A stretch of 28,625 nt of DNA from an uncultured Synergistia bacterium (lineage in GTDB: Bacteria > Vulcanimicrobiota > SpSt-956 > JAKJGF01): assembly GCA_964431735.1 (NCBI GenBank), contig CAYSLJ010000099.1, positions 1 through 28,625 on the forward strand, in the 5' to 3' direction. Below the pieces are notes generated by a model, which was given only the letters and a program-made list of their open reading frames with translations, was not told where the DNA came from and did no database searches. Shown in pieces: positions 538 to 17,035 of the stretch. How positions within the stretch are numbered: the first letter of the stretch is position 1; the number at the start of each line of letters is the position of its first letter. A program made the translations under genes and the position numbers.

Positions 538-2535
538 TTAATTTTCCCCTAATTTGCCTGACATATAGGCCTGTATCTCTGATAATATAGTAGATCTCCA
601 GTAATAACCGAGTGCTTCAATCTGTTCTTCAGAATTTCCCTGTCTCAACAGAGATGCATTTTCATAATAACATATTGGCAGAACAGAATTCTCTTCCCCG
701 TTAAGATGTATAAGAGACAGAGCTCTTTTATCTGCAAAATTCAACATATTTGCAAGAGCTCTTTCGTTTTTTATAGATACAACCTGTGTATAATTTTTAT
801 CAAACTGAGGATCAAGGGAATAAAATTTTGCTATTAACTGTGCGGATAATGTATAGGTAGATGAAGCTTCTCCTATAATCATGGGAGCAGATTCAGCCGT
901 TTCTGAAAATTCCTTTTTCATTAATTCAACGCCATAGGTACTTGCAAAAGCCATCATATATCTGTTATCAAGCTTCATAAAATTATATTTCATAACATCT
1001 GAATGGATACCTGCAGATTTTGCATATTCGTCTACAATAGTGCTTTCAAAATAAGACATATTTGCCTTTGCCGCTCCTGCCATTATTTCTCCTAATTTTA
1101 CAAGGTCATCATTATTTACAGTGGCAGGACTTCCGAAATCTTTGGCAATATCGAGACAATCCTTTGTAATAGTAAGCAAAGCACTGGCACAGCAATAATA
1201 ATACCCTACATAATAAAGTTCTTCCATAAGCTGTGCTTCATCATAGGAACTGATATTTTTCTGTATTGTACTGATTTTATCATCTGCAAGCAAGATGAAT
1301 CCTTCTGCCATTGTGAGTTTGCTGTAGGCTTCAAATAATGCCACATAATCACTGGTAGATTCAACATCTTCTGCTTTAAGATTATCCATAGCAGCACTTA
1401 ACTCGGTTTTAACAGATTCCTTGCTTTCAAGATAGGATATGGCGCCATCAAAACCGCTGTTCTGATAACGCTGTATCATATTCATGGCAAGTACTATGGC
1501 ATCCATCTGAACAGTAGCTCCCGTTGCCCTGTCATAGGCCACACTGGCCATACCCTGGGAAAGGGCATTATCGGCTTTTTGAGCCAGTTCATCAACCATG
1601 CCGGCAAATGCGCCGAAATAGGTCTGATAATCTTTAGGGAACGACTTATACTCACCTTTTAATTTTTTGTATCTGCTGTACCATTCCTTTGCTCTTCCTT
1701 TAAATCTGTCAAAGGCTTTTGACGGCAGTTGAGGAGGTGTATCGGAAACCTCCATTTGAGGAAGACTGTCTCCTGTAAGAAGTTTATATGCTTCATATAC
1801 ATTGGAGACTTCCTTTACTTCCAGACCAAGCTTCTTTCCTTTTTCTATAACATCAATAGATGCTTTTGTACCCATATCAACTGAATATCTCTGTCCTGCA
1901 GGAATAAGAACAAGGATTTTTCCTTTTTTCTGAGCACCGTAAAGTTTCTGCGGTATACCTCCTACAGGGCCTATTGTGCCATCAGGATTAATGGTTCCTG
2001 TCATAGTTGCATCTTCTCTTACCTGCTGTCCGCGAAGAGCAGCAAGTGTTCCTACCGTCATAAGACACCCTGCACTGGGGCCGTCAATTCTGCCGCCTGT
2101 ATCGAAAGAAAATTCGTAATTTGTGGCATCTTTACCAAGGAGCATATTTGCAAGAACAACTGCCATCCATCCGGAAGAGCGCCACATATTCCCTGTTCCT
2201 CCTGCTTCACTTTCACCGAAGGAAACTTTCATTTTTTCACTGGTTTTCTTTTCTGCTTTTATTATCACCTCGCTGGATCCACCACTGGGAGGATCACCGC
2301 CTAAATAATAAAGAGCATCTATTTTTACCTCTTTTTCTTCCTCTGTGCCGGAAGTTACAGGTGTTACTTCACCTGTGGAAGGAGTTTTTTGAGATACGTC
2401 CGTTCCCGGAGTTACACTGTCTGAAGGGATCTGCTGGAATAATTTAGTGCATGGAGGACAGCAGCAGGAAGAAAATAAAAGTGTTATAAGACAGATAAAT
2501 ACAGAAATAGAGAGCATTTTTGTTACTTTTTTCAT
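538..2535 (-). CDS. Lipoprotein with Lon-type (S16) serine protease domain and a ~380-aa C-terminal domain of unknown function
   Basis: Signal peptide plus lipobox-like LLFSSC, then a Thr/Ser/Glu-rich linker. Lon catalytic Ser motif DGPSAGCLMTVGTLAAL and Lys region GGIPQKLYGAQKKGKILVLIPAGQ are present. No AAA+ ATPase region. AAGGAGG Shine-Dalgarno 8 nt upstream of the ATG. Confidence 0.75.
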   Translation of the reverse strand: MKKVTKMLSISVFICLITLLFSSCCCPPCTKLFQQIPSDSVTPGTDVSQKTPSTGEVTPVTSGTEEEKEVKIDALYYLGGDPPSGGSSEVIIKAEKKTSEKMKVSFGESEAGGTGNMWRSSGWMAVVLANMLLGKDATNYEFSFDTGGRIDGPSAGCLMTVGTLAALRGQQVREDATMTGTINPDGTIGPVGGIPQKLYGAQKKGKILVLIPAGQRYSVDMGTKASIDVIEKGKKLGLEVKEVSNVYEAYKLLTGDSLPQMEVSDTPPQLPSKAFDRFKGRAKEWYSRYKKLKGEYKSFPKDYQTYFGAFAGMVDELAQKADNALSQGMASVAYDRATGATVQMDAIVLAMNMIQRYQNSGFDGAISYLESKESVKTELSAAMDNLKAEDVESTSDYVALFEAYSKLTMAEGFILLADDKISTIQKNISSYDEAQLMEELYYVGYYYCCASALLTITKDCLDIAKDFGSPATVNNDDLVKLGEIMAGAAKANMSYFESTIVDEYAKSAGIHSDVMKYNFMKLDNRYMMAFASTYGVELMKKEFSETAESAPMIIGEASSTYTLSAQLIAKFYSLDPQFDKNYTQVVSIKNERALANMLNFADKRALSLIHLNGEENSVLPICYYENASLLRQGNSEEQIEALGYYWRSTILSEIQAYMSGKLGEN

Positions 2536-2588: not shown

Positions 2589-2708
2589 AGGTAAAACCTG
2601 AGATGTCAGAGAGAAAACATTGCCGGTTATACTTCCTGACAGATTATATTACAGGCTTCCAGATATAAATTCTTCTAAAATCTATAAATTTCCTACATAA
2701 ATATAAAT

Positions 2709-3113
2709 TTATTTCTTCCCGCCTATGATACGGGAAATTTTTGTTTCCAGAAGAAGGGGAAATTCAGTAAAAAGCTTCTCGTTCAAACAGGCCTGAAACC
2801 ACAAAAGCCCCGGCCTGTAAAGGGGAAAATTCTTTAAAGGCGATAAAAACCTCTTAACGGTACATTGCTGATCAGAATGAAAATTTCTCTTTAAAATCTC
2901 GAAATAAAGCTGATCCTTCTGGGCTGTAAGTATTTTTATCTCTTCTTTATAATCACCTTCAGGAACAACCCATTCCGTAACGATACAGAAAGAAATATTT
3001 GAAGGATATGTTACAGCCTTTATTTTATTAAATATACCGCTCAATACAGGTCTTTCTGACATATCTTTACCTATGGCATCACATAATATAAATGATTTTA
3101 TAAAAGCTTCCAA
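2709..3113 (-). CDS. Hypothetical protein (134 aa), TTG start
   Basis: ORF with AAGGAG Shine-Dalgarno 9 nt upstream of a TTG start. The same heptamer promoter-proximal module precedes it. I recognise no domain. Confidence 0.5.
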   Translation of the reverse strand: MEAFIKSFILCDAIGKDMSERPVLSGIFNKIKAVTYPSNISFCIVTEWVVPEGDYKEEIKILTAQKDQLYFEILKRNFHSDQQCTVKRFLSPLKNFPLYRPGLLWFQACLNEKLFTEFPLLLETKISRIIGGKK

Positions 3114-3132
3114 TATGATTGACTCCTTAAAT

Positions 3133-3162
3133 CGTGACGCGTGACGCGTGACGCGTGACGCG
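3133..3162. repeat. Tandem heptamer array (CGTGACG)x4, near-identical copy of the 2559-2588 array
   Basis: atcgtgacgcgtgacgcgtgacgcgtgacgcgagg is shared between the two loci, flanks included. It lies immediately 5' of the 2709..3113 gene start. Confidence 0.9.
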
Positions 3163-3241
3163 AGGATCGTTTATTATGAACAATATATATATTGATTTAT
3201 TCTATAAATATGAAAAAAATCCTACATAAGAATTATCTTCA

Positions 3242-3304
3242 GTGAGTAGTGAGTAGTGAGTAGTGAGTAGTGAGTAGTGAGTAGTGAGTAGTGAAAAGTG
3301 AATT
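3242..3304. repeat. Tandem heptamer array (GTGAGTA)x7 followed by GTGAAAA/GTGAATT units
   Basis: Perfect 7x7 bp tandem repeat 3242-3290, then degenerate GTGAnnn units. Confidence 0.95.
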
Positions 3305-3317
3305 TTACGCTTTACGT

Positions 3318-3434
3318 GTCACGCGTCACGATTTATAGTATCACGTATTACGCATCACGCATTACGCATCACGCATCATGCATCACGAACCACCCGTCAC
3401 ACGTCACGCGTTACGCGTCACGCGTCACGACTAT
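3318..3434. repeat. Composite heptamer array (TCACGCG / TCACGTA / TTACGCA / TCATGCA units) ending in the conserved module ...CCACCCGTCACACGTCACGCGTTACGCGTCACGCGTCACGACTA
   Basis: About 16 consecutive 7-bp units. The terminal part matches the modules at 13584-13620 (-), 17003-17035, 23345-23381 (-) and 25817-25853. Confidence 0.9.
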
Positions 3435-3457
3435 AGAAGAAATATTATACGTAAACT

Positions 3458-4819
3458 ATGCAGGAAATTAAAGATAAATTTAGAAATTCATTTATTATGA
3501 AACAAAAAGTTATCAATGATCCTGTCCACGGATTTATACTTATAGATCCTCCGTTAATTCTGGAATTAATGGACAGTTATACCTTTCAGAGGCTCAGAAG
3601 GATAAGACAGTTAGGAACTACATTTATTACCTATCCCGGGGCGGAACATACAAGGTTTGCCCATTCAATAGGGGTTTTTTATCTTGCCACAAAGATAATA
3701 TCACACCTGTTAAACCTTTCGGGAAATCCTTTTTCTCATTTAAACAGAGAAGAGAAAGAAAGGCTTCACCTGCTGGTTCAGGTAGCAGGTCTGCTCCATG
3801 ATATAGGCCACGGGCCTCTTTCTCATGTATTCGAACGTATTTTCGGCCTGCCCCATGAAGAATGGACAAAAAAAATAATACTCGGTGATGAAAATTGTAA
3901 TGAAATCTACAATATACTGACAGGAAAAAATAATCCTTTCGGAAAAGATTTTCCCTCAGACCTTCTGGCAATACTCAATAATAAATATATAGATCCGAAG
4001 GAAGGATATCTGTCCTGTGTAAATCCCATCATATCAAGCCAGTTAGATGCAGACAGACTCGATTACCTTCAGAGAGATGCCTACTATACGGGAGTAAGAT
4101 CGGGTTTTATAGATGCAGACAGGATAATTTATACACTCGATCTTTATAAATCGGAAGAAGACGGTAAAATAAAAGAAAAAATCGTAGTATGGGATAAAAG
4201 CTTTTATAATGTGGAAGAATATATTTTTTCCAGATATTATATGTACTGGAAGGTATATCACCACAGGACTACAAGGTTTTTCGATTTGCTCTTTATGAAT
4301 ATAGTAAAAAGACTTAAAGAGAGTAAAGAACCTGATGACGTAAGTATTGCCTCCAAGAATCTTTTAAACATACTCATAAAACCTTCTCCGTCTCTCCAGG
4401 ACTGGCTTATGCTCGACGAATCCGATTTACTTTATTCAATCAAGATGTGGGCCTTCCACGGTAAGGATGCAATACTGAAAGATCTATGTGAAAGATTCAT
4501 AAAAAGAAAGGTTTTTAAATCTATTCCAGATTCATTCATAATGAATGAAGAAAAAATAGAAGAAGTAAAATCTTTCCTTCTCGGGAAAGGTCTATCACCT
4601 GAATATTATTTCCTTCAGGATACGGCGTCTAAAGTAGCCTATGATTTTTATACGGAAGAACATGAACGTATCTATATAATGGACAAATATACCCATAAAC
4701 CATGCCCCATATCAGACTTATCCGATAAAGTAAGAACACTGGCACAGAAAAATGTAGAAAAAAGATTTTATGTACATCCCGATTTTCATGAAGATATTTT
4801 AAATATTCTGAAAGGCTAA
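3458..4819 (+). CDS. HD-domain phosphohydrolase, dNTP triphosphohydrolase (dGTPase/SAMHD1-like, COG1078-type)
   Basis: N-terminal DPVHGFI...FQRLRRIRQLG...YPGAEHTRFAHSIGV and HD motif LLHDIGHGPLSH. 453 aa. The start could alternatively be the Met at 3497 (MKQKVINDPVHGF). Confidence 0.8.
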   Translation: MQEIKDKFRNSFIMKQKVINDPVHGFILIDPPLILELMDSYTFQRLRRIRQLGTTFITYPGAEHTRFAHSIGVFYLATKIISHLLNLSGNPFSHLNREEKERLHLLVQVAGLLHDIGHGPLSHVFERIFGLPHEEWTKKIILGDENCNEIYNILTGKNNPFGKDFPSDLLAILNNKYIDPKEGYLSCVNPIISSQLDADRLDYLQRDAYYTGVRSGFIDADRIIYTLDLYKSEEDGKIKEKIVVWDKSFYNVEEYIFSRYYMYWKVYHHRTTRFFDLLFMNIVKRLKESKEPDDVSIASKNLLNILIKPSPSLQDWLMLDESDLLYSIKMWAFHGKDAILKDLCERFIKRKVFKSIPDSFIMNEEKIEEVKSFLLGKGLSPEYYFLQDTASKVAYDFYTEEHERIYIMDKYTHKPCPISDLSDKVRTLAQKNVEKRFYVHPDFHEDILNILKG

Positions 4820-4900
4820 AGAACCTTGTCATGAATGGAGTGTAAACCTCTGTTAAAACCTTATAGAAACAAAAGATCTTACAATTTCGTTAAAAATCCT

Positions 4901-4932
4901 CGTGTCACGCGTCACGCGTCACGCGTCACGAT
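4901..4932. repeat. Tandem heptamer array (TCACGCG)x4 ending cgtcacgattct immediately before the ATG at 4936
   Basis: cgtgtcacgcgtcacgcgtcacgcgtcacgattctATG. No Shine-Dalgarno lies between the array and the start. Confidence 0.9.
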
Positions 4933-4935
4933 TCT

Positions 4936-7272
4936 ATGAAACAAATAATTACAGGTGTCCATACATTACTCGATCTCATATTCAGAGAAAAAGATCTTTC
5001 TCTGTCAATAATGTCACAAACAAGGCTTACAGAAGGCATAGCAGGTCATATAGAAGTTCAGTCTTCAAGACCGGCACACTATGAAGCAGAAGTTCCTGTT
5101 CAATTCAACTATATATATGAACCATATGAAGTTATTGTAAGAGGACGTATTGACGGTATCTACAGATATGAAGATATTCTGAAAATTGAAGAAATAAAAA
5201 CTACCTCTATGGAACTTGAATCATTAAGGGCCGGCATTCATCCCTACTATGAAGCACAGCTTAAACTCTATATGTATTTCCTCAAAGAACAAAATAAAGA
5301 TAAAAAGATTGAAGGAGTGCTAACATATTATTCGACAAAGACAGGCCAAACAAGAGAATTTAATATAGAATTCAATGAAAAAGATTTCAGAGATTTTTTC
5401 GAATATCTTGCGGGAACCATTATAGATATACAGAAAAAAGAAGACAAATGGAAGGAATTAAGAGACAGTTCCATTCAAGAATTGACATTTCCATTTGATA
5501 TATTGAGAAAAGGCCAGAAGGAACTGGGAGAGAAAATCTCACAGATTATAGAAGAGGGAAAAAATCTCCTCCTGGAAGCACCTACGGGGACAGGGAAAAC
5601 TGTGGCAATACTTTTTCCGTCAATAAAACTTCTTCCACCGGGACTTTACGAAAAAATCTTTTTCCTCACAGCGAAAACGCCGGGACAGAATATAGTAAGG
5701 GAAACACTTCAGATATTTAAAGAAAAAGGACTTCATATGAAAAGTGTCTTTTTAAATGCAAAAGAAAAGATGTGTGTCACGGGAGATTGTAACTGTGATC
5801 CTTTACTGTGTAAATATGCGGAAGGGTATTATGAAAAACTCCCCTCTGCCATCGAAGAAATAGTGAAAGATGAAATTATTACAAGAGAACAAATTATTTC
5901 CGTGGCAGAAACATTTAAGATATGTCCCTTTGAATTTTCTCTCGATCTGTCTCTGTACTGCGACATGGTAGTCTGCGATTATAATTATGTCTTTGATCCC
6001 GCCGTATATTTAAGAAGATATTTTCTCGGAGGAAAAGAGAAATATCTGTTTCTCATAGATGAAGCCCATAATCTGGTAAACAGAGGAAGAGATATGTATT
6101 CCGCCTCTTTAGATAAAAAAACTGTGCTTGAGCTGAAAAGAGAAATGAAACATAAAGACAGGAATCTGTATAAATTCTTTGATGATATGAATAAACAGTT
6201 TATTTCCTGGAACAAAGAATTAAAAGAACTTAAAAAATCCATCCTTCTCTTAAATGACATACCGGAATGTTTTAATCTATGGAAAGAAGAATTTTTCAGC
6301 ATGTCAGATGAATTTTTCGGTAGTAATAACCAGTCTCTGGAGCTAAAAAATTTTTATTATGACTTTCAGCATTTTAAAAGAATAATGGAGCTTGCCTCTG
6401 AAGAACACAGAATTTTCATAAAAAGTACTCATCAAAATCTCTTCTGGAAAATATTCTGCCTCAACCCGGGAAAAGAACTATCAAAAAGATTAAAAAGAAG
6501 TCATGCTTCCATTTTCTTTTCAGGCACCCTTTCACCTGACGAATATTTCAGAGACCATCTTGGTTTAAAAGAAGAAACCGAATATTTAAGCCTTCCCTCG
6601 CCTTTTCCGCCTGAAAATTCACTCTATCTTCATATCCCCGGTATAGCCACTACCTATAAAAGAAGAGAAGAATTTTATGAGAAAATCGCAGAACATATAA
6701 AAAGAGTTATTTCTACGAAAAAAGGGAATTATCTGTGTTTCTTCCCTTCCTATAAATTTTTAGACGATGTTCTGGCAAGGTTTCCTTTACCGGAAGACTC
6801 TTATATCTTTATACAATCAAAAAATATGACAGAAACTGAAAGGGATGAATTTTTAAATAATTTCATTCTTTCCGGAGAAACACGACTTGGATTTGTAGTC
6901 ATGGGAGGCCTTTTCGGAGAAGGCATAGATCTGCCCGGCGAAAGACTCATAGGTGCCATTATAATCGGAGTAGGTCTTCCCATGGTAGACGAAGAACAAT
7001 CGCTCATAAGCGACTATTTCGAAGAAAAAGAAAAAGGTAAAGGGTTTCTTTACAGTTATATGATCCCGGGCATGATAAGGGTCATACAGTCTGCCGGAAG
7101 GGTTTACAGGACTCCGGCCGATAAAGGGATCGTAGTGTTAATGGATGACCGGTTCAGACATAGCGGGTATCTGAAGCTTATGCCGAAGCGGTGGTTTACA
7201 GAGAAAAGAGCCCTGTCTTCAGGTGAATATGAAGGGATTTTAAGGGATTTCTGGCATGGTAATTATAGATAA
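4936..7272 (+). CDS. Fusion protein: N-terminal RecB/Cas4-family PD-(D/E)xK nuclease domain + XPD/DinG (Rad3)-family iron-sulfur SF2 helicase
   Basis: Nuclease motifs in the first ~130 aa: GRIDGIY (motif II), EEIKTT (ExK), YEAQLKLYMYF (QxxxY). Helicase motifs: Walker A EAPTGTGKT, DEAH box IDEAHNL. Four-Cys Fe-S insertion: CVTGDCNCDPLLC ... CPFEFS...YCDMVVCDY. Also SEGIDLPGE-like GEGIDLPGERL and motif VI QSAGRVYRTPADKGIVVLMDDRF. Confidence 0.85.
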   Translation: MKQIITGVHTLLDLIFREKDLSLSIMSQTRLTEGIAGHIEVQSSRPAHYEAEVPVQFNYIYEPYEVIVRGRIDGIYRYEDILKIEEIKTTSMELESLRAGIHPYYEAQLKLYMYFLKEQNKDKKIEGVLTYYSTKTGQTREFNIEFNEKDFRDFFEYLAGTIIDIQKKEDKWKELRDSSIQELTFPFDILRKGQKELGEKISQIIEEGKNLLLEAPTGTGKTVAILFPSIKLLPPGLYEKIFFLTAKTPGQNIVRETLQIFKEKGLHMKSVFLNAKEKMCVTGDCNCDPLLCKYAEGYYEKLPSAIEEIVKDEIITREQIISVAETFKICPFEFSLDLSLYCDMVVCDYNYVFDPAVYLRRYFLGGKEKYLFLIDEAHNLVNRGRDMYSASLDKKTVLELKREMKHKDRNLYKFFDDMNKQFISWNKELKELKKSILLLNDIPECFNLWKEEFFSMSDEFFGSNNQSLELKNFYYDFQHFKRIMELASEEHRIFIKSTHQNLFWKIFCLNPGKELSKRLKRSHASIFFSGTLSPDEYFRDHLGLKEETEYLSLPSPFPPENSLYLHIPGIATTYKRREEFYEKIAEHIKRVISTKKGNYLCFFPSYKFLDDVLARFPLPEDSYIFIQSKNMTETERDEFLNNFILSGETRLGFVVMGGLFGEGIDLPGERLIGAIIIGVGLPMVDEEQSLISDYFEEKEKGKGFLYSYMIPGMIRVIQSAGRVYRTPADKGIVVLMDDRFRHSGYLKLMPKRWFTEKRALSSGEYEGILRDFWHGNYR

Positions 7273-7330
7273 AAATCATATTTTATGCTATAATTGCTGT
7301 GGTGAATATAAATAATACAATAGCTGCTCT

Positions 7331-7346
7331 CGTGACGCGTGACGGG
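7331..7346. repeat. Short heptamer array (GTGACGC x2) in the 4936..7272 / 7397..7972 intergenic region
   Basis: cgtgacgcgtgacggg. A TATAAT hexamer lies 40 bp upstream at about 7289. Confidence 0.7.
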
Positions 7347-7396
7347 AGAAACACATTTCTCATGTCATTATAAAGGGAATTCACTTAGAAAGGCAG

Positions 7397-7972
7397 GTGA
7401 AAAGGATGATAATAGAAGAGAGAGTAGACAGACTGGAAGAAATGATGGTTAAAACTCAGATGGTGGTGCAGAGCCTGGCTATAGAAATGAAATTATTCAG
7501 GGATGAAATGAAAAGAGATACTAAAAATTTAAAGCAGGAACTGGCAGGAGTGTCAAAGAAAATGGGCACAATAGTGGAAGATATTGTGGCACCGAATATT
7601 AATTATATAGGAAAAAAATACTTTAACTGTTATGATTGCCAGCTTTTTATGGTAAGAGTGAAAGTAAATCACAGTAAAATAAAAGGAAAGAATACGGAAT
7701 TTGACATTATAAGTGTATACTCTGATAAAGTAATAATAAATGAAACAAAATCTACTCCAAGAACAGAAGATCCTCAGAATTTCTCCGAAAAAACAAATGA
7801 TTTCTTTGACTATTTCCCTGAATATAAAGGGAAGCAATTAATTCCGGTGTTTGCCAGTATCCATATCCCTGAAAATATTCTTGCAGATCTTTCCAGAAAT
7901 AAGATTTATGCTATGGCCATGAAGGAAGGCACTATGGATATACTCAATCCAGAGGTTCTGGAAGTATACTGA
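7397..7972 (+). CDS. Hypothetical protein: N-terminal coiled-coil plus C-terminal putative PD-(D/E)xK (restriction-endonuclease-like) domain
   Basis: 191 aa. Begins EERVDRLEEMMVKTQ... (heptad-like). Spaced acidic/Lys residues GTIVEDIV ... EFDIISVY ... INETKS fit an E / D / ExK pattern. GGTGAAAAGG Shine-Dalgarno upstream. The domain call is inference only. Confidence 0.55.
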   Translation: MKRMIIEERVDRLEEMMVKTQMVVQSLAIEMKLFRDEMKRDTKNLKQELAGVSKKMGTIVEDIVAPNINYIGKKYFNCYDCQLFMVRVKVNHSKIKGKNTEFDIISVYSDKVIINETKSTPRTEDPQNFSEKTNDFFDYFPEYKGKQLIPVFASIHIPENILADLSRNKIYAMAMKEGTMDILNPEVLEVY

Positions 7973-8130
7973 CAGGAAGCCAGTATGTTAGTAAAAATAT
8001 TAACATACTGGAGGTGTAACCATTGTTTCTTACTCTGAGAAAATCGGCTTTAACAGAAGAATTTGATTACAATTTTATCAAGTATGCCCTTCGTAAAAAA
8101 ATCAGGACTGTTCAATAAAAATATAAAGAA

Positions 8131-8168
8131 TTTATTACGAATAACGTAATAAATTCCGTAATTTTTTT
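8131..8168 (+). terminator. Candidate intrinsic terminator (AT-rich stem + T7 run) downstream of the 7397..7972 gene
   Basis: tttattacg-aataa-cgtaataaa stem-loop followed by ttccgtaattttttt. The stem has only 2 GC pairs. A separate perfect 11-bp hairpin (ccagtatgtta/taacatactgg) sits at 7980-8011 right after the stop. Confidence 0.3.
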
Positions 8169-8179
8169 GATAATAACAC

Positions 8180-8392
8180 TTATCCCTGATTTTGTTCAGC
8201 TTCTATCTGCCTGTCACATGTATCAAGATAATTTTTCCATAATCGTTTCTTACACTCAGAGCAGATAGTATGACTTATGTCCTGAATAATATCTGAAGTT
8301 TCCGTCCATATACCTGTATCAATATCTTTTACTTTTCTGCACCAGGCACATTGTTTTAATTTATACCTGGCTTTTTTTATAATATCTATAAT
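8180..8392 (-). CDS. Candidate small zinc-ribbon protein (two CxxC pairs) lacking a canonical start codon
   Basis: The minus-strand frame encodes ...KKARYKLKQCAWCRKVKDIDTGIWTETSDIIQDISHTICSECKKRLWKNYLDTCDRQIEAEQNQG*. It is preceded by an AAGGGGGG Shine-Dalgarno-like run. The only in-frame candidates are ATT/ATA/CTG, so it is absent from the supplied ORF track. The coordinates assume an ATT start. Confidence 0.25.
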   Translation of the reverse strand: MIDIIKKARYKLKQCAWCRKVKDIDTGIWTETSDIIQDISHTICSECKKRLWKNYLDTCDRQIEAEQNQG

Positions 8393-8459
8393 AAAACTTC
8401 CCCCCTTCAGATGTTAGTAAGAAAATATCCGTATCAGACTTTCACAGGTGAAGGTCACA

Positions 8460-9848
8460 TCAATACCCATAAGACCATGACCAGGTTATATTATTATTAT
8501 CAACTCCATTATTTATCTTTATCTTTTGGGAATTATTCAGATATGGTGGATATTGCAGATTTCCATTTCCTTTAAATTCAACATTATCTCCAATAATAGC
8601 TCCATACATAGTCCCCTGGCCGGTATAAGTTACATCTCCATCCGGATTATATACAATACCATATGTTTCACCCTGGCCGGACACTTCTATATCAGTATAT
8701 CCACTGACTTCTGGATTGTAAGAAGGATTGGTAGTTTTTCCATTACTACCATAAATTATAATATCTGAAGCAAGAGTGGTTTCATTTGAGGGACGCATTA
8801 TAGATTGTCCGGTAAATTTAAACGTGTGACCTGCTTCACAGTATATCTCTACAGGTATAGGATTACCCTGAGCATCATTGCTAATAGACAGTCTTATATC
8901 AAGCTTTGATGCTGCTTTAAAATCAGATGCAATAACATATTTTCCTGATTTAAAAACCAGAACGGAATTATTTCCTCCGCCAACAGTCCCACCGCCAAAA
9001 TCATAAGCATAACCCGGTTCCAGTGTAACTGTCTGATTATTACTTATAGTAATAGTACCTGGATATAAAGTAAAAGATGGAGCCGTTATATCAGTCATAA
9101 GTGGGATCGGTGCAGGTAATACAAGGGTACCTTTATAATTAGATGAGCTAATTCCTCCTGAAACAACATCGTCGATAGTATTGGGATCATTACCACCATA
9201 GATATATCCATTGACAACAGTATTATGTCCCGTACTTATAGCACCTGATGCTGTAGAATTTACAGCTATATTTGCATAGGTATTGGGATCAGACGAATTA
9301 TAGCCTGTACTGACAACCTTACCGTTACCTGTAAATCTTATAGAAGTCTTTCCAGTTATAGCATTGGGAACAAGGGGTACTTCTTCCAGGAGGGCACTTC
9401 CTATAGCTATAACCCTTGCTTTGGATTTATAATTTGCAGAACTAACATATCCGCAGTAGCCCGTGGCAACAATTTCAACTTTTCCAGCGGGAATATTCGG
9501 TATAACACCGCTTATGGATGGTACAGACGTAGTTCCATTTATATTATTTTTTATCTGAACCTCGTAATATCCGCGGATTTTCTGGTCTGTAACAGTATAA
9601 GTAGTTAAAGGAGTAGGAGGTAATGGTGTATTACAATCAGGATCCTGTTCCACCATGTAAATAGCATAAGAGACACCGGCTTTGGCTGCTTCTACGGCTG
9701 TTATACTGTAATTTTTCTTTGTTATTACATTTGCCAGAGTCATACCTCTTACAACAAGAGCAGTCCCCAGAATAGCAATAAGAACAAGGGACATAATAGT
9801 AATAGCTATTCCCATACCTTTCTGGTTTTCAAATAACTTTTTCAACAT
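8460..9848 (-). CDS. PilX-like large minor pilin / pseudopilin (462 aa)
   Basis: N-terminal PilX_N-type hydrophobic segment MGIAITIMSLVLIAILGTALVVRGMTL, then a Gly/Thr/Asn-rich beta-rich region. AGGAGG Shine-Dalgarno 9 nt upstream. Last gene of the kinase-pilin cluster. Confidence 0.65.
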   Translation of the reverse strand: MLKKLFENQKGMGIAITIMSLVLIAILGTALVVRGMTLANVITKKNYSITAVEAAKAGVSYAIYMVEQDPDCNTPLPPTPLTTYTVTDQKIRGYYEVQIKNNINGTTSVPSISGVIPNIPAGKVEIVATGYCGYVSSANYKSKARVIAIGSALLEEVPLVPNAITGKTSIRFTGNGKVVSTGYNSSDPNTYANIAVNSTASGAISTGHNTVVNGYIYGGNDPNTIDDVVSGGISSSNYKGTLVLPAPIPLMTDITAPSFTLYPGTITISNNQTVTLEPGYAYDFGGGTVGGGNNSVLVFKSGKYVIASDFKAASKLDIRLSISNDAQGNPIPVEIYCEAGHTFKFTGQSIMRPSNETTLASDIIIYGSNGKTTNPSYNPEVSGYTDIEVSGQGETYGIVYNPDGDVTYTGQGTMYGAIIGDNVEFKGNGNLQYPPYLNNSQKIKINNGVDNNNITWSWSYGY

Positions 9849-9871
9849 ATTCTTTACCTCCTTAATTTATT

Positions 9872-10585
9872 TTAATTACTCATATTCATAGTAAAGGAAA
9901 CAATAATAGAGTTATAAGATGTATTTGGATTATTGGGATCAAAGTTGCTATTTGCTTTTTCAGATATTATTATATCTACTTTCAATGGTAATTTAGTTCC
10001 TATAACAGACGGAGGAATACCTGTAGAAGAAACGCCTATTTCAGGGAAATTCAAATCTCTTACTCTATGAGCTATAATCATTTTTTGAGTATAATCTGTT
10101 CCACCTGTAATAAAACTGTTTACTCCCAGTCCACATGGAAGTGGTATAATACTGCCTGTTGTGCCTCCTGAAGGATCCTGTAAAAATTCTCTTCTGCACA
10201 GAGCCTTTTCATTTGACTTTTCATCTGTATCTATATAATAACATACATACTTATACCATATAGATTTTGCAGTATTGGGGTCAATCTGAAATTCATTATT
10301 CTGGTTAAAATCTCTGGCAGAAGCAAATATTATTCCTGTTGGTTGATTAACATCAGAAGGATTATATATACTGGCAGTTTTATAAGATGATTCCATAAGT
10401 TCTCTCGACATTTTTGCCAGTGCAACAGAAGCATCCTGCTGCATATTGGAAAGACTTGATTGAGAAAGATAGCTTTTTTTAAGAAGCAATCCTATACCTG
10501 CTATCATGGTAAACATAATACCCATAACAGATATGGTTATAAGGAGTTCTACTGCAGTAACACCTCTCTTCTTTTTTATAGTCAT
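9872..10585 (-). CDS. PilW-like prepilin-type N-terminal domain protein (minor pilin)
   Basis: Class-III-like N-terminus KKKRGVTAVELLITISVMGIMFTMIAG. I place the start at the ATG preceded by AAAGGAGGTG, which is Met16 of the 9872..10630 track ORF. That leaves a 13-nt gap after the PilV-like stop instead of an overlap. Confidence 0.65.
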   Translation of the reverse strand: MTIKKKRGVTAVELLITISVMGIMFTMIAGIGLLLKKSYLSQSSLSNMQQDASVALAKMSRELMESSYKTASIYNPSDVNQPTGIIFASARDFNQNNEFQIDPNTAKSIWYKYVCYYIDTDEKSNEKALCRREFLQDPSGGTTGSIIPLPCGLGVNSFITGGTDYTQKMIIAHRVRDLNFPEIGVSSTGIPPSVIGTKLPLKVDIIISEKANSNFDPNNPNTSYNSIIVSFTMNMSN

Positions 10586-10598
10586 TTCTGCACCTCCT

Positions 10599-11066
10599 TT
10601 ATATACCGGAATTTCCCGGATTAACGACAATAGTTACAAGTTCTATCTGTCTGAGCCTGCCACCACCGGAAGCAATACCACGTCCCATAGTATGTTCATT
10701 CCAGGTTACTCTCACATTTAGATTATACATCTTACCTGTTGTAGAAGGTGTACATGGTGACGTAGCGACATTAACCTGAAACGTTGTAGAACTAACAACT
10801 CTATTTACATTGGTTGTTACAACTACAGGTTCTGAATGGCCTGTAGAAGCAAGCTGGCCTTTAACCTGGTTCCATCTGACAGTGGTCGGAGTGGCATAAA
10901 GTTCCATATATGATTGAGCAATCTGCTGTGCAAGGAGTCTGTTCTGTGAGCTTTTTATAAAAATTCCTGTCCCCGGAACTACCTGCAATATGGAAAGAAA
11001 TCCCATAGAAAGAACTATGATTGAAATCATTGCGTCTATCAGGGTAATACCCTTTTCTCTAATCAT
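10599..11066 (-). CDS. PilV-like type IV minor pilin (prepilin N-terminal methylation motif)
   Basis: MIREKGITLIDAMISIIVLSMGFLSI matches K-G-F/I-T-L-I-E/D plus a hydrophobic helix. GGGGGA Shine-Dalgarno 7 nt upstream. Confidence 0.7.
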   Translation of the reverse strand: MIREKGITLIDAMISIIVLSMGFLSILQVVPGTGIFIKSSQNRLLAQQIAQSYMELYATPTTVRWNQVKGQLASTGHSEPVVVTTNVNRVVSSTTFQVNVATSPCTPSTTGKMYNLNVRVTWNEHTMGRGIASGGGRLRQIELVTIVVNPGNSGI

Positions 11067-13583: not shown

Positions 13584-13645
13584 ATCGTGACGCGTAACGT
13601 GTAATGCGTGACGGGTGGTTCGTGATGCGTGATGCGTGATGCGTT
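13584..13645. repeat. Heptamer array (CGTGACG / CGTAACG / GTAATGC / CGTGATG units) containing the conserved module in minus orientation
   Basis: Its reverse complement reads catcacgcatcacgcatcacgaaccacccgtcacgcattacacgttacgcgtcacgat, matching 3370-3432 and 25800-25853. Confidence 0.9.
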
Positions 13646-13652
13646 AAATAAA

Positions 13653-13683
13653 GTTGAGGGTTGAAAGTTGAGGGTTGAGAGTT
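13653..13683. repeat. Second heptamer family: GTTGAGG / GTTGAAA / GTTGAGA tandem units
   Basis: gttgagggttgaaagttgagggttgagagtt, just downstream of the response-regulator stop at 13732. Confidence 0.85.
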
Positions 13684-16886: not shown

Positions 16887-17035
16887 CGTGACGCGTGACG
16901 CGTGGCGTGACGCGATGGTTTATTTTATTATATAAACATAATAACGTCGTAATGCGTGATGCGTAATGCGTGATGCGTAATGCGTGATGCGCAGGGATTA
17001 AACCCGTCACGCGTCACGCGTTACGCGTCACGACT
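16887..17035. repeat. Divergent intergenic region made of three heptamer arrays plus the conserved CGTCACGACTATAAT module
   Basis: (GTGACGC)x3 abuts the kinase start. GTAATGC/GTGATGC x7 runs 16948-16992. Then aaacccgtcacgcgtcacgcgttacgcgtcacgactataat at 17001-17040, which includes a TATAAT hexamer. Confidence 0.9.

Follow-up and report, generated by a model that had tools for sequence, protein, structure and literature searches.

An EndoDinG nuclease-helicase and its neighboring genes in an Eremiobacterota-labeled genome

EndoDinG proteins are DinG-like helicases set apart as a subgroup by an N-terminal PD-(D/E)xK nuclease, and were named in a 2025 review (PMC11981726). The first structure and biochemistry of a member, FmaDinG of Finegoldia magna (PDB 9KQH), followed in July 2026, and mutagenesis showed that its nuclease residues H40, E54, R73, D75, E88, and K90 are all essential (PMC13650095). 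Here we analyze a contig of 28,625 nucleotides (nt), CAYSLJ010000099.1 of assembly GCA_964431735.1, the whole of which we call the window, and within it a locus of three genes whose central member encodes a nuclease-helicase of 778 amino acids (aa). As far as sequence and a structural model can test, this protein has every feature of an EndoDinG. The locus itself very likely consists of three ordinary chromosomal genes that are neighbors by chance, rather than of a three-gene system: the EndoDinG gene, an HD-domain gene of the SAMHD1 type, and a solitary gene of family DUF8196.

Several other helicases and nucleases share parts of this design. Outside EndoDinG, the nearest match to the 778-aa protein in both sequence and structure is XPD (E ~1e-32; template modeling (TM) score ~0.6). 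Archaeal and eukaryotic XPD-Rad3 proteins, represented by Thermoplasma acidophilum XPD (4A15), have the same 5'-3' core of helicase superfamily 2 (SF2), the same 4Fe-4S cluster, and the same Arch domain (HBB), but lack the nuclease domain that the window protein possesses. ExoDinG, of which Staphylococcus aureus DinG is the example, also joins a nuclease at its N-terminus to 5'-3' translocation; its nuclease, however, is a DnaQ-like DEDD 3'-5' exonuclease and not a PD-(D/E)xK enzyme. ExoDinG, Escherichia coli DinG and YoaA, and CasDinG all belong to the helicase superfamily of the window protein. DinG and YoaA differ from it in having no nuclease domain at all, and CasDinG, which is found at CRISPR loci of type IV, differs in its degenerate iron-sulfur (Fe-S) domain, described as vestigial in two reports (PMC13650095; PMC10450177), whereas the Fe-S cysteines of the window protein are intact. 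Dna2 and AddAB resemble the window protein in having a motor that passes single-stranded DNA to a RecB-family nuclease, and the nuclease folds are related. The motors of Dna2 and of AddA/AddB are nevertheless of superfamily 1 and their Fe-S cluster lies inside the nuclease domain, while the window protein has an SF2 motor with the cluster in the helicase.

The nuclease-helicase and its family

The gene for the 778-aa protein occupies positions 4936-7272 (+). Its N-terminal Cas4/RecB-like PD-(D/E)xK endonuclease domain covers residues 1-175 (4936-5460, +), and its XPD-type SF2 helicase core, made up of MD1, a four-Cys Fe-S domain, Arch, and MD2, covers residues 176-778 (5461-7272, +). Pfam places PDDEXK_1 at residues 41-168 (E 3.6e-8), followed by DEAD_2, HBB (the Arch-type domain of XPD), and Helicase_C_2. 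The motifs GRIDGI (residue 70), EEIKTT (85), and QLKLY (108) fall in the nuclease part, and APTGTGKT (215), DEAHN (375), and QSAGRVYR (718) in the helicase. Across 16 aligned homologues, drawn from several phyla, the nuclease residues H38, E52, R71, D73, E86, and K88, the Walker A stretch G218-T222 with K221, the DEAH box at 375-378, and the Fe-S cysteines 280, 287, 292, and 330 are all invariant. An earlier note on this DNA had taken the protein for a fusion of a RecB/Cas4-like PD-(D/E)xK nuclease with a complete XPD/DinG Fe-S helicase core. Both halves of that reading are upheld by the domains, the motifs, the catalytic set, and the four cysteines. Beside the PDDEXK_1 match, the NCBIfam Cas4 model TIGR00372 scores 26.7 bits on the N-terminus, which is sub-threshold, and the best NCBIfam helicase model is rad3 (TIGR00604), at 169 bits under a cut-off of 247.

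Among solved structures, FmaDinG (9KQH) aligns with the protein at E 1.3e-131, residues 10-753 of the query against 11-747 of the chain, nuclease domain included, with 37.6% identity over 727 aligned positions. The six essential nuclease residues of FmaDinG correspond in order to H38, E52, R71, D73, E86, and K88 of the window protein, its ATPase residue D378 to D375, and its Fe-S cysteines C289 and C294 to C287 and C292. The DNA contacts K249, K278, K280, R578, F698, and R733 are identical in the two proteins, and F478 is replaced by Y475. Every FmaDinG residue shown by mutagenesis to be important is thus either conserved or conservatively replaced. An AlphaFold2 model of the 778-aa protein (predicted local distance difference test score, pLDDT, 87.3) superimposes on 9KQH with TM scores of 0.81/0.85; the scores with archaeal XPD (~0.6) and with E. 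coli DinG and CasDinG (~0.5) are lower. Because the alignment with 9KQH is full-length, the mutagenised residues are conserved, the fold matches, and the catalytic and Fe-S residues are invariant, we assign the protein, as judged by sequence and model, to EndoDinG.

The resemblance to FmaDinG extends to the order of the domains, from PD-(D/E)xK through MD1, with its four-Cys Fe-S and Arch insertions, to MD2. The two differ in that the Arch contacts D475, F478, and K482 of FmaDinG are N, Y, and H in the window protein; in the host, here an Eremiobacterota-labeled metagenome-assembled genome; in the histidine H9 that takes the place of Arg10; and in the pairing with a SAMHD1-type HD gene, which is confined to the clade of the window. 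Two other assignments within the superfamily were tried and rejected. The NCBIfam equivalogs for E. coli-type proteins score far under their cut-offs (YoaA 134 bits against 680; DinG 116 against 789 and 111 against 598). The ExoDinG models TIGR01407 and NF005569 match the helicase part only (residues 397-751), with 105 bits against the TIGR01407 cut-off of 547.7.

The architecture, which the earlier note had called unusual, is neither rare nor new. EndoDinG had already been named, solved, and assayed (PMC11981726; PMC13650095), and a protein search with the 778-aa query gave significant matches to over 7,800 clusters. Of the best 120, nearly all are ~770-850 aa long and cover 96-100% of the query, most are annotated with PDDEXK_1, and their sources are Bacillota, Armatimonadota, Bacteroidota, Deltaproteobacteria, and Eremiobacterota. 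Scanning a single genome for each GTDB species confirmed at least 588 EndoDinG loci, and the cultured taxa among the matches listed include Clostridium, Bacillus infantis, Peribacillus, Enterococcus, and Levilinea. With the nuclease domain as the sole query, 844 representatives were found at 50% clustering, and 78 of the best 150 are at least 700 aa long. Matches shorter than 400 aa were considered as possible stand-alone nucleases; all six that were inspected proved to be N-terminal pieces of ~180-300 aa, and since most of them run into the start of the helicase they are truncated EndoDinGs. A metagenome scan with the single protein gave two distant loci only (34% and 24% identity) and no further members of the clade. 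As a discovery, the fusion therefore matters little, belonging as it does to an established family with a published structure and mechanism. What the window adds is an extension of the range of EndoDinG to an Eremiobacterota-labeled lineage, a phylum outside the published list of EndoDinG-bearing orders.

If the window protein acts as FmaDinG does (PMC13650095), its XPD-type motor would load on a 5' single-stranded tail and translocate 5'-3' with ATP, and its 4Fe-4S and Arch domains would split the duplex. The displaced 3'-ended strand would be threaded into the gated N-terminal PD-(D/E)xK site (H38, E52, D73, E86, and K88) and cut there endonucleolytically, with a preference for Mn2+ and a dA/dC bias. 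Digestion deep into duplex DNA would need helicase action and ATP hydrolysis. These steps are carried over by homology from FmaDinG; what the window protein itself contributes is the conservation of the residues and of the fold.

Flanking genes and a survey of EndoDinG neighborhoods

The three open reading frames (ORFs) of the locus were verified on one strand at 3458-4819 (+, 453 aa), 4936-7272 (+, 778 aa), and 7397-7972 (+, 191 aa). Their co-orientation and coordinates are those given earlier, and two start sites are amended. The HD gene probably begins at M14, with the ATG at 3497, which would yield 440 aa rather than 453, because strain L085, which is 98% identical, has its start called at that codon and the alignments of orthologues begin at the same point. 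The DUF8196 gene most likely begins at the ATG at 7406, for 188 aa rather than 191, since the N-termini of its homologues agree.

The upstream gene (3458-4819, +; Pfam HD and HD_assoc_2) encodes a predicted homologue of the deoxynucleoside triphosphate (dNTP) triphosphohydrolases of the SAMHD1/EF1143 type. Over residues 13-439 it aligns with the EF1143 dNTPase of Enterococcus faecalis (PDB 2o6i) at E 3.5e-63; SAMHD1 (~1e-29) and two other HD phosphohydrolases of bacteria align end-to-end too, and the E value for 2q14 is 1.2e-50. The likeness to these dNTPases is thus full-length, and it includes the H..HD..D metal site, represented by H69, H114-D115, and the D197-D199 region. Homologues outside its own clade are 'HD domain-containing proteins' of Bacillales, at ~40% identity. 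The alignment with 2o6i and the metal-site motifs bear out the HD dNTPase-like identity proposed earlier for this gene. The link then drawn to anti-phage dGTPases fails, as the protein falls far under the models for the Dgt type (NF041026, 17.5 bits against 400; NF003701, 20.1 against 383), and the dGTPase model of PADLOC reaches 27.9 bits over residues 39-127 only, that is, over the HD motif. By these comparisons the enzyme is of the SAMHD1/EF1143 type and not of the anti-phage Dgt type.

The downstream gene (7397-7972, +) encodes a DUF8196 (PF26618) protein with a variable coiled coil and a C-terminal PD-(D/E)xK fold. A search of the PDB by sequence gave chance coiled-coil matches only, with no sequence-level relative solved, so folds were compared instead. 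This comparison revealed the D...(D/E)xK signature in a restriction-endonuclease-like fold, and DUF8196 is accordingly assigned to the PD-(D/E)xK fold, as the description of a small PD-(D/E)xK-like coiled-coil protein had anticipated. The nearest nuclease domains compared are those of Can2/Card1, NucS, and type II restriction enzymes. DUF8196 differs from them in having no CARF or other sensor domain and, in its place, an N-terminal coiled coil whose 7-residue repeats vary in number. These repeats, of the 'EMKEFKD' type, range from none to about ten among the homologues, and the PD-(D/E)xK domain is well conserved. Homologues of DUF8196 lie between DUF885 and a kinase, between radical-SAM and fatty-acid synthesis genes (Jettenia), or among PIN and HEPN/MNT modules; none of the homologue loci adjoins EndoDinG or an HD gene of this type, and in two relatives of the window, L081 and L084, there is no DUF8196 gene downstream of EndoDinG. 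DUF8196 is a solitary gene, unrelated to the HD and EndoDinG genes.

The earlier note had suggested that the three genes form a defense island or a dedicated DNA-repair module. We took 80 EndoDinG loci of other phyla, each with flanks of 6 kb, and compared their ORFs with the HD and DUF8196 proteins of the window and with the DUF6941 and Lon_C proteins encoded farther upstream. None of the four occurred within 6 kb at any of the 80 loci. Clustering of all neighboring ORFs gave no recurrent partner, the best cluster (ABC-F-type ATPases) being present at 13 of the 80 loci in mixed positions. Among the 150 immediately adjacent ORFs, 179 Pfam families were found, none in more than four members, and no PADLOC family matched more than 3 of the 150. 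DNA-repair-type nucleases adjoin EndoDinG in a few cases (FAN1-like VRR-NUC in 2 of the 150 ORFs, GIY-YIG in 3), too few to interpret. With neither neighbor at any surveyed locus, with DUF8196 in unrelated contexts, and with a window of housekeeping genes, the proposal of a three-gene island or repair module is not sustained. Of two observations that the note had said would together speak against it, one was made, in that the trio does not co-occur elsewhere, and the other was not, since the helicase groups apart from DinG/YoaA orthologues.

A defense island would consist of the dNTPase, the nuclease-helicase, and the PD-(D/E)xK protein, the latter two as effectors. It can call on the PADLOC typeIV_DinG model PDLC01439, which scores 407 bits on the 778-aa protein, on the 27.9-bit dGTPase match, on an AbiE cassette next door in L085, and on one DUF8196 homologue that sits among toxin-antitoxin genes. 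PDLC01439, however, matches 16 of 16 EndoDinGs tested whatever their context, and is therefore a generic helicase-core model; genuine Csf4 models reach 15-23 bits on the same protein. The dGTPase match is limited to the HD motif and the dedicated anti-phage models stay at 17.5-20 bits against 383-400. The trio is conserved nowhere examined, and EndoDinG neighbors are almost never defense genes. The window has no defense cluster, and its other genes are housekeeping save for one Ser/Thr kinase with generic kinase-domain matches to PADLOC kinase models. We regard such an island as highly improbable. The name of the PADLOC match might also be taken to mean that the helicase is CasDinG (Csf4), an accessory of CRISPR type IV, for which we see next to no chance. 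The ORFs of at least 110 aa in the window contain no cas or csf domains and the window shows no CRISPR-like repeats, hence neither csf/cas genes nor an array; the Fe-S cysteines are intact rather than vestigial; TIGR03117 (Csf4) gives 15.7 bits against a cut-off of 400; and the TM score is ~0.5 to CasDinG against 0.81 to EndoDinG. With the model matching every EndoDinG tested and no cas genes or CRISPR in the window, the typeIV_DinG match was dropped as evidence of either CRISPR type IV or defense.

EndoDinG thus appears in the 80-locus survey with no conserved partner and with no enrichment beside defense genes, which bears on the role left open in the 2026 paper. Because there is no conserved partner and the neighborhoods are not those of defense, a stand-alone enzyme of genome maintenance is favored, and the cellular role of EndoDinG is probably of that kind, in the processing of DNA ends, forks, or flaps.

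The HD-EndoDinG pair and the strain-variable flank

Some observations count against reading the locus as chance neighbors around a typical EndoDinG. In this clade, H9 stands where FmaDinG has the substrate-binding Arg R10. The HD gene lies directly 5' of the EndoDinG gene in each of the three lineages sampled from the clade (61-98% identity), and in one of them, L084, the upstream flank is different and the two genes overlap in a TAATG stop/start; such persistent adjacency hints weakly at some functional coupling of HD with EndoDinG. The downstream spot, finally, has a mobile or defense flavor, given AbiE in L085 and the DUF8196 homologue among PIN and HEPN/MNT modules.

The adjacency could reflect a lineage-specific two-gene operon with real functional coupling. 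In one version, SAMHD1-like local dNTP hydrolysis would be coordinated with nuclease-helicase resection in repair; in another, dNTP depletion and DNA degradation would be aimed at invading DNA. HD and EndoDinG adjoin each other on one strand in the window, in strain L085, in L081, and in L084, the last of which keeps the pair, with its overlap, behind an altered upstream flank. The divergence of the HD orthologues also tracks that of the EndoDinG orthologues: HD is 76% and EndoDinG 66% identical in L081, and the values are 69% and 61% in L084. Against this, the sample is of three lineages only, and in L081 the pair is part of a more extensive conserved block (response regulator, Lon_C, DUF6941, HD, and EndoDinG), so that simple synteny suffices. 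The next HD orthologue, at 55% identity, adjoins RNase Y at a site with no EndoDinG, and this HD type is missing from the flanks of all 80 EndoDinG loci of other phyla. The spacer between the two genes is 116 nt in the window, with a heptamer array of its own, and 413 nt in L085, with an inserted repeat element; because its length and content vary, tight coupling of HD with EndoDinG has not been maintained. The neighborhood comparison that the earlier note had asked for thus shows a trio that is not conserved elsewhere, with only the HD-EndoDinG pair kept, and that within the clade.

On balance, we consider a lineage-specific operon with functional coupling unlikely, and a genuine two-gene operon whose dNTPase and EndoDinG products act together, for example in dNTP hydrolysis coupled to resection at damaged or foreign DNA, slightly less likely again. 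SAMHD1 is linked to DNA-end resection, and an operon of this kind, if true, would be a bacterial counterpart of that link. The pairing in one clade is, as such, a weak lead that can be tested. On the reading that we prefer, that of ordinary neighboring genes, the HD dNTPase would be a common housekeeping enzyme that regulates the dNTP pool, and its gene would probably share a transcript with EndoDinG, though in this clade only.

Comparison of the window with L085 defines the downstream side more closely. In L085 an AbiEi/AbiEii toxin-antitoxin cassette (L085 8290-9681; AbiEii and AbiEi_4 matches), absent from the window, is inserted at window position ~8097, just after DUF8196. Similarity between the two sequences ends at 8097 and resumes for 50 nt past L085 position 9682. 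The AbiE insertion, together with the absence of DUF8196 in relatives, marks the downstream side as a strain-variable spot. The strain breakpoint and a bidirectional terminator-like hairpin 3' of DUF8196 together occupy 8093-8156, with no strand assigned. Nucleotide identity between the window and L085 forms a mosaic, at 98% over EndoDinG and DUF8196, 94% over HD, and 89% over the Lon_C/DUF6941 region. Between the HD and EndoDinG genes, L085 (4716-4935) carries an insertion of ~300 bp that is absent from window 4820-4935. The insertion contains nested inverted repeats, gagcctatccgaaaag...cttttcggataggctc enclosing cacccttccggagggtgag...ctcaccctccggaaggt, and resembles a small element of the miniature inverted-repeat transposable element (MITE) kind.

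Heptamer arrays and other features of the window

The earlier note had remarked on heptamer modules in front of the first two genes. The arrays are real. About 19 heptamers (CGTCACG/CATCACG/CATTACG) stand upstream of the HD gene at 3303-3440 (+), preceded by (AGTGAGT)x8 at 3241-3301 and (CGTGACG)x4 at 3133-3162. An array of (GTCACGC)x3.9 at 4904-4930 (+) ends 5 nt before the EndoDinG ATG, and two CGTCACG units, read on the minus strand, lie at 7331-7344 (-) in the spacer between EndoDinG and DUF8196. They do not link the genes, however, as hardly an intergenic region of the window is free of (CGTCACG)n or its variants, with 28 pattern matches against 0 expected and more than 20 arrays reported by TRF. 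Beside the arrays just named (3133-3162, 3241-3301, 3303-3440, 4904-4930, and 7331-7344), there are arrays at 2559-2588, 13586-13683, 16887-17032, 17840-17854, 19331-19391, 20660-20809, 23349-23376, 23609-23636, 25718-25877, and 27040-27210. Variants of the unit include CATCACG, CGTTACG, AGTGAGT, and AGTGAAA, and CGTCACG usually runs along the coding strand and precedes the start codon by a few to tens of nt. Copy numbers differ in L085, which has 2 units upstream of HD and 3 imperfect units before EndoDinG, and the arrays are absent in the 66% (L081) and 61% (L084) relatives. They are a genome-wide feature at the level of the species and give these genes no regulatory signature in common. In the literature, the nearest analogue found is the intergenic TAACTGA heptamer repeat of Beggiatoaceae, Cyanobacteria, and Bacteroidetes (PMC4679880).

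Scans of 2600-8600 for transcription signals gave 31 sigma-70 promoter-like sites against 23.3 +/- 4.3 in shuffles, which is not clearly above, and 4 terminator-like sites of the intrinsic type against 4.0. As neither count is clearly above the shuffles, the scans do not define transcription units. Their sole notable item is the hairpin at 8128-8156, which stands between DUF8196 and a pseudopilin-like cluster. Rfam gave no match within the window.

The remaining genes of the window are housekeeping: LepA, a HemN-like radical SAM protein, GlgC, a sigma-54 two-component system, the Ser/Thr kinase, and the pseudopilin-like genes. On the upstream side, a 665-aa lipoprotein-like protein at 538-2535 (-), in which the Lon_C proteolytic domain alone is recognized, adjoins a DUF6941 protein at 2709-3113 (-). 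This Lon_C and DUF6941 pair is kept upstream of HD-EndoDinG in L081 and L085. The pseudopilin-like cluster at 8460-11066 (-) is convergent with DUF8196 and comprises a protein with an N_methyl prepilin motif, a DUF7305 protein, and a 155-aa ORF. Farther on, at 20809-23268 (-), lies an 819-aa ORF with domain matches to MVP_shoulder (E 1.9e-29), Vault_3, and Band_7/SPFH; it is a bacterial homologue of the shoulder region of the eukaryotic major vault protein.

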